Shown: positions 32,731 to 43,165 of the stretch, piece by piece
Layout: the number at the start of each line of letters is the position of its first letter
Position numbering within the stretch: the first letter of the stretch is position 1
Origin: Oscillospiraceae bacterium
GTDB taxonomy: Bacteria > Bacillota > Clostridia > Oscillospirales > CAG-272
DNA: 64,000 bases
Direction: 5' to 3'
Assembly: GCA_015064505.1 (NCBI GenBank)
Contig: SVSB01000001.1
Location: forward strand, 56,826 to 120,825
The notes under the pieces: generated by a model
Seen by the model: only the letters and a program-made list of their open reading frames with translations
Told to the model about the DNA's origin: nothing
The model's database searches: none
Position numbers and translations under genes: made by a program

Positions 32731-33279
32731 ATGATAATTGACCTTACTGCTCTCTTAACGGGAGAAGCTTCCACCATCGATATTGAGTTTGATTTCACCC
32801 CCGATATGGGTGAAGAGGCTCCGATGGCGCTTGCGGATGTTTCCTTCCCCCACGGCGCTCACGCAAAGGGCAGGGCTGTGGATAACGCAGGCTATATCCG
32901 CCTGGAGCTGGATGTTTCAGCTCCCTGGCAGGGGGAATGTGCCCGTTGTCTGGAGCAGGTAAACGGAACGCTGGAGTTCTTCTTCGAACGCACCGTAGCC
33001 GCCAAGGGTACCCTCGAAAACGAGGAGGAGGTTGCAGACTATTCCTCCGAGTACCTGATTGCCGAAAACGGCAAGATCGCTCCTGTAAAGGAGCTTTCCG
33101 ACAGCATCGCCTTTGAATTTCCATCAAAGGTGCTGTGTGATCCCGATTGTCCCGGTATGTGCGCCCGTTGCGGCAAATCTCTGAAGAACGGAGACTGCGG
33201 CTGCAACAAAAAAGAGCATGATCCCCGTTGGGACGTGCTTCGCACCATGAAATTCCCCGATGATCCGGCGGATCAATAA
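32731..33279 (+). CDS. yceD: YceD/DUF177 family protein
   Basis: CARCL, P.KVLCDPDCPGMC..CG, DPRW; lies upstream of rpmF. Confidence 0.92.
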   Translation: MIIDLTALLTGEASTIDIEFDFTPDMGEEAPMALADVSFPHGAHAKGRAVDNAGYIRLELDVSAPWQGECARCLEQVNGTLEFFFERTVAAKGTLENEEEVADYSSEYLIAENGKIAPVKELSDSIAFEFPSKVLCDPDCPGMCARCGKSLKNGDCGCNKKEHDPRWDVLRTMKFPDDPADQ

Positions 33280-33333
33280 TTAAGTTTATAAAATAATTAG
33301 ATAGCGGTTTTCCGCAACTCAGGAGGTGTAACC

Positions 33334-33528
33334 ATGGCAGTACCAAAGGCAAAAGTTTCTAAGGCTCGCAGAGATAAGAGACGTTCCAACGTTTGGAAGC
33401 TCACCGCTCCCGGACTTGTAAAGTGCCCTCATTGCGGCGAGTATACTCGTGCGCACCGTGTTTGTGCAGCTTGCGGCTTCTACGACGGCGTTCAGATCGT
33501 CAAGAATGCTGACGAAGCTAACGCGTAA
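33334..33528 (+). CDS. rpmF: 50S ribosomal protein L32 (Zn-ribbon type)
   Basis: MAVPKAKVSKARRDKRR, CPHCG, HRVCAACGFY. Confidence 0.97.
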   Translation: MAVPKAKVSKARRDKRRSNVWKLTAPGLVKCPHCGEYTRAHRVCAACGFYDGVQIVKNADEANA

Positions 33529-33537
33529 ATTTTAAAG

Positions 33538-33566
33538 AAAAACCGCCGCGCGCACGGCGGTTTTTT
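33538..33566 (+). terminator. Intrinsic terminator after rpmF
   Basis: CCGCCG-loop-CGGCGG-TTTTTT. Confidence 0.8.
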
Positions 33567-33603
33567 CAATTCTCCGCATTTCTTTACTTCCGCGGAACAA
33601 AAC

Positions 33604-33641
33604 AAAAAGTGTCAACGGAAAATTTCCGTTGACACTTTTTT
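33604..33641 (-). terminator. Intrinsic terminator after spoVG
   Basis: AAAAAGTGTCAACGGAAA / TTTCCGTTGACACTTTTT. Confidence 0.75.
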
Positions 33642-33666
33642 CGTTCGGTGGTATACTGTTAACAGA

Positions 33667-33996
33667 TCAAAGATCCGTGCCCTCGCTGCCGTCAGCAAAG
33701 GCAGACTCGGAATTCTCCTCGTTTGCCATAACCTCGGCAAGAGCAACCTCGCGGTTATACGCGTCGATCACCTGCTCCTCCATTCTTGCGCGGAAGTCGG
33801 AGTTGATGGGGTGAACGATGTCACGGTATGTTCCGTCGGGATTCTTGCGGCTGGGCATTACGATAAAGATCTTCTCTCTTGCGCTGATGACCTTAACGTC
33901 GTGCAGAGCAAGCTGACCGTCAAAGGTGACGGAAACGATGGCCTTCATGGGGCCCTCGTCAAAAAGCTTTCTTACTTTGATATCAGTGATTTCCAT
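33667..33996 (-). CDS. spoVG: Septation regulator SpoVG
   Basis: MEITDIKVRK, KAIVSVTFD, MPSRK, YRDIVHPIN. Confidence 0.95.
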   Translation of the reverse strand: MEITDIKVRKLFDEGPMKAIVSVTFDGQLALHDVKVISAREKIFIVMPSRKNPDGTYRDIVHPINSDFRARMEEQVIDAYNREVALAEVMANEENSESAFADGSEGTDL

Positions 33997-39296: not shown

Positions 39297-40319
39297 TTAT
39301 CTTAAATACTTTCCGTAGATGGCTCTCTCCGTGGGTCCATCACTGAAAAAGCGCATTGCCTTTCCCGTTCCTATAGCAACACACTGCTCGGGATTCTGTG
39401 GGATGCGGGCGCGCACGCCGATGCAGGAGGTGATAACGTCGCTGAGACCCGCAAGCATACTTCCGCCGCCCGTCAGCAAAATACCGTTGCTTACAAGGTC
39501 ACCGTCAAGCTCCGGGGGAGTATTGTCGATAACCTCGGTTATAGCGTCAAGTATCTGATTTATGGGATCGGTCAGCGCCTCCTTGATATCCTGAGGCGTT
39601 ACGCGCACGGTCTTTGGCAATCCTCTTGCAAGGCATCTGCCCGTAACGTCCATATACTTGCCGCTGTACTTGGGATCTGCGGGAATAAGAGTGCCCACGG
39701 TGCGCTTAAGCTCCTCTGCGGTGCGCTCACCGATAAGCACGTTATAGCGGTTCCTGATATGACGGGCAATTGCCTCGTCGAACTTATCTCCCGCCACCTT
39801 AATGGACTTGGAGGCTATAACGCCGCCAAGAGAAATGACCGCAACGTCCGTGGTTCCGCCGCCGATATCAACAACAAGATTGCCGTTGGGTGCGGTAATA
39901 TCCACACCCGCGCCGATTGCGGCGGCAACGGGCTCGGAGATAAGATAGGGACGGGTGTATCCCGCACCCGTGGCGGCATCGTGCACCGCCTTTTCCTCTA
40001 CCTCCGTAATATCTCCGGGTATGCATATAAAGAGTCTTGGCTTTATTATCTGGGTGCCGATAGCCTTGCGCAAAAAGTACTGCAGCATCTTAACGGTCAG
40101 CTCGTACTGGCTGATAACTCCGTCCTGGAGCGGCTTAACGACGCGAATATTAGCGGGGGCACGCCCAAGTATCTTGCGCGCGTCCTCGCCAAAGCAAACT
40201 ATTTCTCCCGTATCCTTTTTCACCGCCACCACAGACGGCTCCTTAAGGGCAATTCCCCTGCCCCCCACGGAAACGAGAACGTTTGAGGTTCCGAGATCGA
40301 TTCCTATATCTCTGCTCAT
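39297..40319 (-). CDS. mreB: Rod shape-determining protein MreB/Mbl
   Basis: GIDLGT, EPSVVA, EPVAAAIGAG, DIGGGTT, LTGGG. Confidence 0.93.
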   Translation of the reverse strand: MSRDIGIDLGTSNVLVSVGGRGIALKEPSVVAVKKDTGEIVCFGEDARKILGRAPANIRVVKPLQDGVISQYELTVKMLQYFLRKAIGTQIIKPRLFICIPGDITEVEEKAVHDAATGAGYTRPYLISEPVAAAIGAGVDITAPNGNLVVDIGGGTTDVAVISLGGVIASKSIKVAGDKFDEAIARHIRNRYNVLIGERTAEELKRTVGTLIPADPKYSGKYMDVTGRCLARGLPKTVRVTPQDIKEALTDPINQILDAITEVIDNTPPELDGDLVSNGILLTGGGSMLAGLSDVITSCIGVRARIPQNPEQCVAIGTGKAMRFFSDGPTERAIYGKYLR

Positions 40320-40494
40320 TATACTTCCATTATGTAAACCGCCCTTTGGCGGTAATATTTATTGATTTTCGGGTAATATACCTATACATATATAATTATA
40401 TAATACAGTATCGGGAAATGCAACACCGAAAGGGGATTTTAAGGATGTTTTTTTCTGCGTTTTTTTGGCATTTTCCGAAGCCCCAAATCACTCT

Positions 40495-40783
40495 GCCGCA
40501 GTAAAATTGTTTCGTAGGCAAGTAATAAATTTCAAAGTTATTCTGCCGCCGTAATTTTTGTTCGTAGGCGAGAAAAGGAGTTACGCTTGGATGACGGCGT
40601 ATTTTCATACGCCGAAGTCAAGCGTGACGAACTTTCCGAAGCATACGGAAGAATTTTCAAGGCGCAGCCGCAGTAAAATTGTTTCGTAGGCGAGGAAGGA
40701 AGATAGGTTTGGGCGAAGCCGTACTTACGTACGGCGAGGTCAAGCCTGTCGCACCTTCCGACGCATACGGAAGAATTTTCAAG
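40495..40783 (+). repeat. Tandem 117-bp structured repeat (two full copies, 40545-40661 and 40667-40783, plus a 25-bp partial copy)
   Basis: Shared ends GCCGC.GTAA..TT..TTCGTAGGCG and GCATACGGAAGAATTTTCAAG; nested stems with compensatory changes. Confidence 0.8.
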
Positions 40784-42998
40784 TCAGATCTTTGATTCGG
40801 CGCACAAGTCCGCTATACCTTACAGTTTGGGAATCGTTCTTCACCATATTATCAAGCACGTCCCTGCTGCCCACCAGAATAACGTAGGTACGGGCACGGG
40901 TCAGGGCGGTATAGAGCATATTACGGGTCTGTAGCATTGGTGCGCAAGGGTAGAGGGGCATCACGACGATGGGGTACTCACTTCCCTGACTCTTGTGCAC
41001 CGTTATGGCGTATGCAAGCTCAAGATCCTCAAAATCCCCAAGGGGGTATTTTACCAGTCTGTCATCAAAGCGCACCTGCGCGCCTCCCGTGGAGGGATCG
41101 AACTTAACGATAACGCCGATATCGCCGTTATAAACTCCCCTGCCGTCCTTGCCGTTTGCCTTCCACTCCAGCTCGTAATTATTGCGGGTCTGCATAACCT
41201 TGTCGCCCTCGCGGAACAGTCTGCCGCTGAGCTCCTTTTCCGCTTTTTGGGGGCTTTTTGGGTTAAGGCGGTCGCGGAGCATCAGGTTAAGATTCTCCGT
41301 TCCCGCAACGCCCTTTCTTGCGGGGGTGATAACCTGCACGCCTCTTTTGCCCATATCTCCGTAGCTTGCGGGAAGTCTGCGTGCGCAAAGATCCGCAACT
41401 GTCAGCGCGGTGCTCTCGCTGTTTTCTCTCGGAAGAAAGAAAAAGTCCTTGTCCTTTGCGTCAAGCTTTGGCATCTCGCCGCGATTTACGGCGTGTGCGT
41501 TGCTGACGATAAGACTCTCCTCCGCCTGCCTGAATATCTCCGTTAGCCTTACGGTGGGAAACGCCTCGGATTCTATTATATCCCACAGCACCTTTCCCGC
41601 GCCAACGGGAGGAAGCTGATCGCTGTCTCCGATAAATATAAGTCGGCATCCCGGGCGTATCGCCTTAACGAGCGCATCGCACAGGAAAATATCAAGCATA
41701 CTTGCTTCGTCTATGATAATTACTCTTGCTTCGAGGGGGGTCATTGCGTCGCGCATAAAGCGCGCTTCCCCCTCGTCTCCCTGATAGTCCATCTCAAGAA
41801 GGCGGTGCACCGTCTTTGCCTCGTGGCTCGTTGCCTCGCTCATTCTTTTGGCGGCTCTGCCCGTGGGTGCGGCAAGAGCGCACTCAAGTCCCATCTCCTC
41901 AAAAATGCGGATAAGGGCAAGGATAACGGTGGTCTTTCCCGTGCCGGGGCCTCCCGTGATAACGGAAACGCCCGACTCCACGGCACTGACGATAGCCTTC
42001 TTCTGCATGGGTGCGTAAACTATGCCGCTTTCCGCCTCTATAACGCCGATAAGACCGTTTACGTCGCTTACCCCGATGCGGGCACAACGGCGGTCCAGAT
42101 CCGCAAGGCGCATGGCGATATCCCTCTCCGTTTCCCATACGTGCTTTCTGTATAGAAGTCCCGTCCTGCCCTCGCAGATTATCTCTCCCTCCGCGATAAG
42201 CGCGTCTCGCTGTGCTCTTACCTCCTCCTCGCTTACGGAGATAAGCTTTGCCGTCTGCTCCTCAAGGATCTCCGTTGGGAGACAGCAATGCCCTCCGCTT
42301 GCGGCAACGGAGCCGAGCACGTGCATAATGGCACAGCGTACGCGATAAGCGGCGTTTCCGCTGAAGCCCATAGAGGAAGCAAGCTTGTCCGCGCGGGCAA
42401 AGCCGATACCCTCAAATTCATCCGCAAGGCGGTACGGATTCTCCTCCACCAGCTTTGCTGCAGAGCTTCCCCATTTTTTATAAACGCGCATTGCCATGGT
42501 GGGAGAAAGAGCGTCTCCGCACAAAAGCAGCAAGCTCCTCATACCCGATCTTTTTGCAAAGCTCTCCCCTATCTCACGCGCCTTTTTTGGAGATATTCCC
42601 GGTATCTCCGCAAGCCACAGGGGGTGCTTATCCATTATTTCAAAGGTCTTTTCTCCAAAGCGGTTTATTATTTTGACGGCGGTCTTGGGTCCTACCCCGG
42701 GCACGGCGCCCGAGGCAAGATAACGGAGCATTGCCTCCGTACCCGAGGGAAGCATACGCTCGTATTCCTTAATTTTCAGCTGGCGGCCGTACTCCGCGTG
42801 CTTCATCCATTCGCCGATGGCGTGAAGGGTCTCCCCCTCCGCAACGTCGGGCATAATGCCAACGAGGGTCACCTCGTCCCCTCCGTTATCAAGGCGCACC
42901 ACGGTATATCCGCTTTCATCACTGCGGAACACCACCTGCGTTACAACGCCGCTTACTTTTTCTTCGTTTTCTCTAAGCTCTTCCCTCACGGTCATCAT
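40779..42998 (-). CDS. recD2: ATP-dependent RecD2-like DNA helicase
   Basis: ENPYRL, GIGF..AD, GGPGTGKT, APTGRAA, DEASM, QLPPVG, TVHKSQGSE, YTALTRA; start uncertain (42998 or 43028). Confidence 0.95.
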   Translation of the reverse strand: MMTVREELRENEEKVSGVVTQVVFRSDESGYTVVRLDNGGDEVTLVGIMPDVAEGETLHAIGEWMKHAEYGRQLKIKEYERMLPSGTEAMLRYLASGAVPGVGPKTAVKIINRFGEKTFEIMDKHPLWLAEIPGISPKKAREIGESFAKRSGMRSLLLLCGDALSPTMAMRVYKKWGSSAAKLVEENPYRLADEFEGIGFARADKLASSMGFSGNAAYRVRCAIMHVLGSVAASGGHCCLPTEILEEQTAKLISVSEEEVRAQRDALIAEGEIICEGRTGLLYRKHVWETERDIAMRLADLDRRCARIGVSDVNGLIGVIEAESGIVYAPMQKKAIVSAVESGVSVITGGPGTGKTTVILALIRIFEEMGLECALAAPTGRAAKRMSEATSHEAKTVHRLLEMDYQGDEGEARFMRDAMTPLEARVIIIDEASMLDIFLCDALVKAIRPGCRLIFIGDSDQLPPVGAGKVLWDIIESEAFPTVRLTEIFRQAEESLIVSNAHAVNRGEMPKLDAKDKDFFFLPRENSESTALTVADLCARRLPASYGDMGKRGVQVITPARKGVAGTENLNLMLRDRLNPKSPQKAEKELSGRLFREGDKVMQTRNNYELEWKANGKDGRGVYNGDIGVIVKFDPSTGGAQVRFDDRLVKYPLGDFEDLELAYAITVHKSQGSEYPIVVMPLYPCAPMLQTRNMLYTALTRARTYVILVGSRDVLDNMVKNDSQTVRYSGLVRRIKDLT

Positions 42999-43165
42999 CC
43001 TCTGGTACGTCAAAAAGTTTACACACAATCAAATAAAACTCACGCAATGCGTGAAAAACGCCGTAAAGCGCGAAAACGCAAATGAAAATTTCAAGCATAA
43101 ACACCCCTCCGATTTCAGGATATGCCAAAACCGAAGGGGTGTTTAAACTAATTCAGCTATTCAGC

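Follow-up and report, generated by a model that had tools for sequence, protein, structure and literature searches.

Downstream of the recD2 helicase gene of an Oscillospiraceae bacterium, two similar hairpin-forming sequences lie in tandem in front of an mreB-family gene, raising the question of whether they belong to a structured RNA or to a mobile DNA repeat. A preliminary description, made without database searches, had left both possibilities standing. The locus was analysed within a window of 64 kb (the whole stretch of DNA examined, 64,000 nt) of the source genome G000, together with the congeners G001-G008 and more distant relatives; contigs and loci are labelled C and L, respectively.

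Results

Tandem array between recD2 and mreB

The two copies of equal length (117 nt) were found as described before, and aligned with each other without gaps at 79% identity and a spacing of 122 nt (Table 1). The 117-nt unit stands as the core of the element but not as its full extent, the model match of each copy including an outer stem of variable sequence. The 25-nt piece in front, previously taken as a partial copy, does agree in every base with the start of copy 2, but the most plausible reading is a third copy with an internal deletion, because it is followed by a right-end remnant (family D4) and because a longer copy is present in two strain runs. The array differs from that of the window in contigs of strain runs X2 and X5, where the first copy is longer and chimeric; copy 2 is missing from X5 contigs, and X10 contigs agree with the window sequence where covered.

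Both neighboring genes are on the minus strand and the array folds better on the plus strand, and thus the rod-like element, hereafter the rod, is antisense to recD2 and mreB as had been noted. The recD2 gene ends inside copy 2, which therefore supplies its TGA, again in agreement with the preliminary description. The C terminus of RecD2 in G000 is 3-4 residues shorter than in G001, G003, and G005, in which the site is without a rod and carries other repeats. In the recD2-mreB spacers of these three genomes (L082, L084, and L083, respectively), the slot behind the recD2 stop is filled by such other repeats, and the recD2 stop codon of G003 is supplied by a GTAG REP. No promoter-like site was found on the plus strand of the array. 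In RNA run X18 (share 0.17), contigs of depth 3-4 covered part of copy 2; being assembled contigs, they are uninformative on strand, level, and locus.

Table 1. Features of the recD2-mreB region in window coordinates; the spans of rod copies 1 and 2 are approximate extents of the model matches.
Feature	Position	Strand	Remarks
Internally deleted first copy	40485..40535	+	Left end 40495-40519 joined to right-end remnant 40524-40535; weak model match 40485-40548
Rod copy 1 with outer stem (core 40545-40661)	40535..40672	+	In 117 nt, 93% identical to the copy that follows the gene adjoining mnmG near oriC
Rod copy 2 (core 40667-40783)	40657..40794	+	116/117 nt identical to the gyrB-gyrA copy; 3' end carries the recD2 stop codon
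recD2 helicase gene (TIGR01448)	40779..43028	-	Leading strand
mreB/mbl-family gene, downstream of array	39297..40319	-	
Promoter-like site of mreB-family gene	40395..40423	-	Kept in congeners; undisturbed by the array, to which it is fork-distal; visual call scoring under the scanner threshold

Members of a dispersed repeat family

The two hairpins are copies of a dispersed repeat of about 135 bases, present at about 25 copies per genome in two groups of Clostridia. An iterated profile (HMM) gave 35 matches at 21 loci of G000, of which 26 were full length. As the preliminary description had proposed, relatives were examined with a covariance model, and further copies were found both in the genus and in a second genus. 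The model built from 23 copies gave 28, 25, 24, 25, and 17 matches in G000, G001, G003, G005, and G008, respectively, and none in G002, G004, G006, and G007, three of which are 97-98% complete; five of the nine genomes of the genus thus carry the rod, with 17-28 matches each. The same model gave one or two divergent matches in three of 52 other relatives. A second covariance model detected matches in 18 of the 150 genomes of the family (none in 132), including those of the second rod-rich genus, G682 and G594, with 25 and 31 matches, respectively (E <= 0.05). This genus is distant from G000, with identities of 33% for DnaN and 68% for GyrB.

Outside the family, weak relatives were detected in six of 149 genomes of the class, some being about 10 bp shorter between the inner loops. 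A scan for the core pattern was positive in four of 400 other genomes of the phylum, and a pattern scan of genome contigs gave only six loci, all in Clostridia MAGs; as these pattern matches are so sparse, the breadth beyond the family rests on weak model matches. One strict pattern and two short queries gave no match in viral contigs, phages, or plasmids. In the window region, no Rfam family matched the element at E <= 10 or reached its gathering threshold, and 14 plus 14 related loci were likewise without a match; Clostridiales-1 (RF01699) was considered as the identity of the rod and rejected. With many further copies, strong covariation, and no Rfam match, the earlier proposal of a non-autonomous single-stranded DNA hairpin repeat family is supported. 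No account of the rod family, or of hairpin repeats locked to replichores and clustered at the origin, was found in the parts of the literature covered, which included, from the supplementary catalogues of candidate RNAs, one motif (PMC2864571).

Three other observations on repeats were made. Outside the genus, three genomes have divergent rods at the 3' end of queA (L056, L058, and L114), and this site is empty in G000. G151 and G122 (L090, L091, L096, and L219-L238) carry a near-invariant repeat at 23-24 copies per genome, which includes a short version of the rod with about 11 nt between the inner loops and without replication polarity. The intergenic regions of G000 contain at least six further repeat families of 8-16 copies each, none being strictly polarised (at best 11:3).

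Fold and covariation

The nested stems predicted for both copies form one long rod, both as RNA (z = -3.8 and -8.4 for copies 1 and 2) and as DNA (z = -4.6 and -6.3), and none of 200 shuffled sequences was equally stable. As RNA, the plus strand gave -41.3 and -58.4 kcal/mol for copies 1 and 2 and the minus strand -34.7 and -37.6 kcal/mol; the plus strand, to which G.T wobbles had been assigned, does include three and four G.T pairs, although the minus strand likewise folds better than shuffles (z of about -3.6 to -4.0). Between copies 1 and 2, six pairs are changed on both sides, above the minimum of four noted before, one is changed on one side with pairing kept, and four have the pairing broken in one copy.

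An alignment of 99 copies was made from matches with E <= 1e-8 at 81 loci. A total of 87.6% of its cells were paired and 42 of 45 pairs showed two-sided changes, compared with 34-52% paired cells in slid controls; this figure is not a probability, the copies being related to one another and their alignment having been fitted to the structure. The rod fold is retained throughout while the stem sequence turns over. Also kept are three purine internal loops with Y-GAN-R opposite Y-GA-R, a G.A mismatch beside the lower loop, and an apical stem with a 4-nt loop; the inner two loops face each other at a conserved spacing of 20-23 nt. The unpaired position of the upper loop covaries with its opposite, being A.G in 68 and C.A in 24 copies, an exchange that we take, on grounds of isostericity, to be a swap of sheared pairs. 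This loop is looser in the second genus (A.G 19, A.A 10, C.A 6, and A.T 6). G.T cells outnumber A.C cells (298 vs 123), with only 21 vs 16 when counted per column. Of 89 copies folded as DNA, 83 are more stable on the purine-loop strand, as are all 42 of the second genus.

The outermost stem varies in sequence between copies and pairs within each copy. In several rods, the final bases of the host gene are mirrored in the left outer arm, as is a synonymous dnaN difference between G005 and G008. In the passages covered of two reports (PMC8794818; PMC7202029), template switching is described as able to produce both such mirrors and double or multi-base compensatory changes in one event, and therefore the stem covariation is weaker evidence of selection than assumed in the preliminary description. 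Its statement that structure and not sequence is conserved thus holds in so far as the rod is kept across 99 copies, but not in so far as covariation alone should prove selection on structure, since template switching can give double changes in one event. The retained loops are a stronger sign of selection than the stem covariation. Broken, chimeric, and truncated copies are common. A palindromic insertion of about 65 nt in the left arm is common to four rods of three species (L036:2989-3191, L038:11279-11478, L144:2656-2857, and L198:7205-7406).

Orientation relative to replication

The better-folding purine-loop strand is the leading-strand template at all 21 loci of G000. It is the C-rich strand on all 14 copy-bearing contigs, with the local 20-kb skew being weakly opposite in sign at two loci (C38:7028 and C71). 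A codon-based strand caller, which was right for all 166 held-out windows at |LLR| >= 10, agreed with the polarity at 21 of 21 loci. The polarity was unchanged upon omission of genes within 5 kb (|LLR| > 60 for 11 single-arm contigs, C11 being weak and C58 undecided), and thus an artefact of local skew produced by the repeats themselves was rejected.

In four congeners, 69 loci were examined, of which four spanning oriC were set aside; the rule was followed at 59 of the 65 remaining loci by codon score and at 55 of 58 by synteny. At five of the six loci dissenting by codon score, synteny either favored the rule or gave no signal, and L193, which follows transcription and goes against replication, is the sole locus failing by both measures. 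After merging by orthologous neighbor, which was done partly by hand and includes a few weak calls on short contigs, 52 of 53 sites obey the rule, and most of the 53 were found in one species only.

Gene orientation was rejected as the source of this polarity: no more than 63% of the genes of G000 are leading-strand genes, and the four independent sites in sense orientation between genes all lie on lagging-strand genes. Antisense sites between co-oriented genes are on leading-strand genes in 24 of 25 cases, and at the 11 convergent sites the folding strand faces the leading gene. The orientation flips across dnaA in three genomes of the two genera: in G000, from the copies to the left of dnaA to those of dnaN-recF-gyrB-gyrA (C37); in G682, between plus-strand copies at 36 to 147.7 kb and minus-strand copies at 157.7 and 158.1 kb, with dnaA at 150 kb (C1); and in G594 (C42), where the flipped copy is a weak match (E = 0.01). 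In the second genus, 20 of 20 regions agreed with the sign of GC skew, five of them having skew near zero.

Strict polarity is not a property of all such rods, a possibility rejected on the basis of an about even split for the short rod in the G151 repeat and of 7:8 for the 15 ERIC-type copies of E. coli, counted with the oriC and terminus positions that we assumed for this chromosome. GTAG REPs, as another control, split 93:79. With G003 and G005 as the reference, the rpmF-spoVG segment at 33279-33667 of the window is apparently inverted in G000 with respect to replication. Rods stand after the rpmF terminator in these two congeners and none in G000, a single case fitting loss after inversion.

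Position on the chromosome and behind genes

Six of the 21 G000 loci lie on two contigs, with dnaA/mnmG and mnmE, that make up 2.1% of the genome (p = 4e-6). In G682, 21 of 25 copies are on two contigs representing 22% of the genome, one including dnaA and the other placed by its shared genes. GTAG-REP-rich spacers are likewise dense on the origin-near contigs of G000, and hence the clustering is not specific to the rod. Two perfect parS-like palindromes, called with the parS consensus as we assume it, were noted in G000 at C47:9979 and 10036, on a contig with neither dnaA nor rods.

One end of the rod is flush against a stop codon, a terminator, a start codon, or a tRNA. At 17 of the 21 G000 loci, a stop codon is no more than 13 nt away from the 3' end of the folding strand, the end that the fork reaches first. 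Behind rpsT, rpmF, and a further ribosomal gene, rods stand directly after the T run of the terminator. The distance to the neighbor is smaller for the flush end than for the other end at 63 of 69 loci, a count with 20 G000 values, of which two were adjusted by eye to allow for a tRNA and for a start codon. The same holds for 16 of 18 convergent loci. At several sites, including recD2, the element replaces the last 3-4 codons of the gene. Rod arrays stop about 10 nt before tRNA-Leu(CAA) in G000, G003, and G005 (L036:10782-10999, L155, and L180).

Turnover and persistence of copies

Rod sites are gained, lost, and re-occupied. G003 contains a pair of 99% identical copies at unrelated sites, and G000 another, formed by copy 2 and the gyrB-gyrA copy. 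Shared sites were found with occupants of 56-70% identity, near the paralogue background of 60%, indicating that sites outlast their occupants. The occupants at rplA are 90-97% identical, compared with 79-82% for four-fold sites, and those at argF in G000 and G003 are 93% identical, compared with 53%; at least some occupants are thus under constraint. The dnaN-recF site is occupied in all five rod-bearing congeners and in G682, and the rlmH, argF, and rimO sites are occupied in both genera. No empty allele was seen within the species.

Search for a mobilising enzyme

An association of the rod family with RAYT, reverse transcriptase, IS1182-type, or IS91-type enzymes is not supported. The linked HUH transposase suggested before was not found: the RAYT-type Y1 genes of the genus carry GTAG REPs, and none was detected in G682 and G594 (97% complete) of the second genus. 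RAYT-type Y1 genes are present in all five rod-rich congeners and in none of G002, G004, and G007; among 61 genomes, seven of the eight with rods have RAYT, as do 19 of the 53 relatives without rods. One rod array of G001 abuts a RAYT gene, and at 15 other RAYT loci a rod within about 2 kb was found at none and GTAG motifs at all. GTAG REPs share spacers with rods (11/20 vs 62/381). Three RAYT-like Y1 HUH genes of G000 carry GTAG REP motifs inside the reading frame (C37:22574-23098, L250; C41:9410-9949, L251; and C63:24232-24915, L249), and all three were missed by a genome search with Pfam Y1_Tnp.

No reverse transcriptase (RVT_1) was found in G000, G001, and G003, and a retroelement passenger such as a retron or group II intron is therefore not supported; RVT_1 is present in G006, which has no rods. 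Of the IS families, the search covered the IS1182 and IS91 types, which exceeded the cut-off in none of 14 genomes, these being draft genomes, which lose IS. No integrase gene was found beside the G000 copies, the tyrosine recombinases of this genome lying elsewhere.

Discussion

Comparison with known hairpin repeats

Among the known repeats, ERIC or IRU (about 127 bp) belongs to the same length class and forms a single rod with internal loops as does the Clostridial element. A model built from Clostridial copies only aligned end to end, on the purine-loop strand, with 14 of 15 copies in E. coli K-12, which we take to be ERIC, the database record carrying no such annotation. A pattern of the apical stem is common to both (83 of 99 rods and 14 of 14 E. 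coli copies), the outer stems vary yet pair in both, and five of the seven E. coli copies facing an antisense gene end are 12-19 nt from its stop. The model scores of these copies (13-32 bits), however, overlap those of unrelated hairpins (12-25 bits), and no sequence-profile similarity to the rod was seen in either direction; identity by sequence homology is thus not shown, and for these two reasons the rod is not filed as ERIC. A filtered whole-genome model search of E. coli found nothing. The E. coli copies also differ in being without replichore polarity or origin clustering, and the fixed terminal inverted repeats, TA ends, and target-site duplication of ERIC as a MITE were not found in the rod.

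The REP/REPIN-RAYT system resembles the rod in being non-autonomous, confined to the chromosome, patchy in distribution, and extragenic, with hairpins and tandem arrays, and REPIN sites are re-occupied by different members, as are the rod sites. The rod differs in having no free 5' GTAG guide with a short hairpin, but forming one 135-bp rod in which GTAG-like bases are paired and covary; no RAYT accompanies it in the second genus, and its strict polarity is absent from the local GTAG REPs. Integron attC sites likewise conserve structure over sequence, fold better on the purine-rich strand, and are antisense to the gene whose stop precedes them. The folding strand of attC is on the leading-strand template, as in the rod, in 25 of 30 sedentary chromosomal integrons according to the part covered of PMC5371416. 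In contrast to attC, the rods are dispersed behind core housekeeping genes without a cassette array, no R'/R'' boxes were seen in the alignment, the loops are tandem purine mismatches instead of single extrahelical bases, and the G000 copies have no integrase beside them.

Derivatives of IS200/IS605 share with the rod strand-specific hairpins, orientation linked to replication, and the lack of target duplication (PMC6006769, in the part covered), but their active strand is the lagging-strand template, and in the rod neither separate left and right hairpin ends nor a fixed target tetranucleotide was seen. BOX and bcr1 of B. cereus are, like the rod, intergenic hairpin repeats of Firmicutes, here compared by description and not by sequence. 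In the passages covered, BOX supplies stop codons in 36 cases, with about half of the insertions being core (PMC3049150), and compensatory changes occur in bcr1 (PMC3184786). Unlike the rod, BOX has a modular build and bcr1 forms a cruciform with 5-bp direct repeats; no replication polarity is reported in these passages. The rod behaves as ERIC and REPIN elements do and is constructed like ERIC; it lacks the features that define MITE ends, REP guides, and integron arrays. The family is apparently an undescribed variant of small intergenic hairpin repeats.

Possible origin and function of the rod

The account that we favor, at about even chances, is that the rod is a non-autonomous, ERIC- or REPIN-like single-stranded DNA hairpin element coupled to the replication fork; it is likely to act there as folded single-stranded DNA and not as RNA. 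The purine-loop strand would be the recognised strand. Its putative binding sites are the three loops, with tandem G.A/A.G and one bulged base; the two inner loops face each other at 20-23 nt. By analogy with integron attC, copies with this strand on the exposed lagging-strand template would be excised or never fixed, and survivors would for this reason face one way; in sedentary integrons, the folding strand of attC is in the template of the leading strand, and the other orientation is excised more (PMC5371416, in the part covered). Known single-stranded DNA transposons use the lagging-strand template (PMC6006769, in the part covered), opposite to that of the folding strand here, and so the polarity must reflect retention or another chemistry. 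Local spread coupled to the fork would keep copies in early-replicated DNA near their founders and would build tandem arrays, template switching at the hairpin could produce the left outer arm mirroring the gene end and part of the compensatory changes, and recombination between copies might swap the occupants of old sites. Against this account stand the lack of a detected mobilising enzyme, the exception L193, the equally dense GTAG-REP-rich spacers near the origin, the lack of an observed empty allele, and both the better-than-synonymous conservation of some copies and the occupation of four sites in the two genera, which fit a host function as well.

Such a host function is the main rival and is compatible with a fork-coupled single-stranded DNA element: about 25 oriented hairpins around oriC would be kept by a host protein as domesticated DNA sites for fork restart, supercoil management, or organisation of the origin domain, movement being secondary. 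We regard this as possible at a rather low probability. The seven genomes carry comparable numbers of copies (17-31), both genera have clustering at the origin as well as polarity, the same four sites (dnaN-recF, rlmH, argF, and rimO) are occupied across genera with DnaN only 33% identical, conservation in place exceeds that of synonymous sites, and no match was found in the viral contigs, phages, and plasmids searched, all of which agrees with it. A site maintained by the host is, however, difficult to reconcile with its lack of detection in four of nine congeners, three of them 97-98% complete, and in 132 of 150 family genomes, with most of the 53 sites being single-species and arrays varying between strains, and with the abundance of broken, chimeric, and truncated copies. 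The preliminary description had also offered a structured ncRNA, and an RNA element, either an antisense ncRNA or a 3'-UTR hairpin at stop codons tuning mRNA stability or termination, is considered unlikely, since orientation follows the direction of replication and not of transcription; of the alternatives offered there, the hairpin repeat family is the one supported. Most sites have the folding strand antisense to the gene next to it, and the four sense sites are always on lagging-strand genes; at convergent sites this strand faces the leading gene, rods stand beyond the terminator T run at the three ribosomal genes, and the plus strand of the array has no detected promoter-like site. These points outweigh in our estimate the RNA-like G.U-type wobbles and A.G/C.A loop swap, the proximity to stop codons at 17 of 21 G000 loci, and the behavior of L193, which follows transcription. 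Also in favor of an RNA role, ERIC affects mRNA stability depending on its orientation (PMC2229807, in the part covered); a 3'-UTR hairpin function of this kind has been proposed for ERIC in Yersinia.

Two readings invoke a known class of transposase. An ordinary MITE moved in either orientation by a DDE transposase, with polarity arising later because selection acts against a lagging template that carries the stronger hairpin, or against inversions between copies, is improbable and is for the most part already refuted, as fixed ends are missing. In its size, its rod fold, its place between genes, and its capture of stop codons, the rod resembles ERIC and BOX in the passages covered (PMC2229807, PMC3049150), and a related shorter rod is found inside the near-invariant 23-24-copy repeat of G151 and G122. 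The rod has, however, neither a fixed terminal inverted repeat nor TA ends, its outer arms being variable yet paired within each copy; direct repeats of at least 5 nt across the ends occur in 23 of 79 cases against 22 after shuffling, with 4-nt matches somewhat commoner; and the repeats compared show no such polarity, with splits of 7:8 for the ERIC-type copies of E. coli, in which one strand is likewise the more stable, of about even for the G151 rods, and of 93:79 for GTAG REPs. A REPIN-like passenger of the RAYT (TnpA-REP) enzymes of the genus is very improbable. The co-occurrence of RAYT with rods in all five rod-rich congeners and in seven of eight rod-bearing genomes among 61, its absence from G002, G004, and G007, the sharing of spacers between REPs and rods (11/20 vs 62/381), and the G001 array abutting a RAYT gene would fit this reading, but G682 and G594 have no detected RAYT, 19 of 53 rod-less genomes have it, none of the 15 other RAYT loci has a rod within about 2 kb while all have GTAG motifs, and the GTAG-like bases of the rod are paired and variable.

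Biological implications

As a caution for screens of ncRNA, the family indicates that a dispersed DNA hairpin can yield textbook covariation. For fragmented genomes of these groups, rod copies could serve as marks of oriC and of replichore direction. A wider and rather doubtful extension is that the rods are a branch of cross-phylum, structure-defined single-stranded DNA hairpins including ERIC, which would be read through their tandem-GA loops by a putative replisome-associated protein; an oriented array of about 25 sites would then mark the origin region, spread without a dedicated transposase, and serve the host at the fork. To the questions of how ERIC-type repeats move and whether they serve the host, the rod family adds testable constraints, namely strict polarity in two genera with a flip at dnaA, clustering near the origin, one end that is flush with a neighbor, and a defined loop motif whose spacing is fixed. 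Altogether, these constraints point to a fork-linked DNA mechanism, and the folded purine-loop strand may be used as bait for the protein that recognises it.
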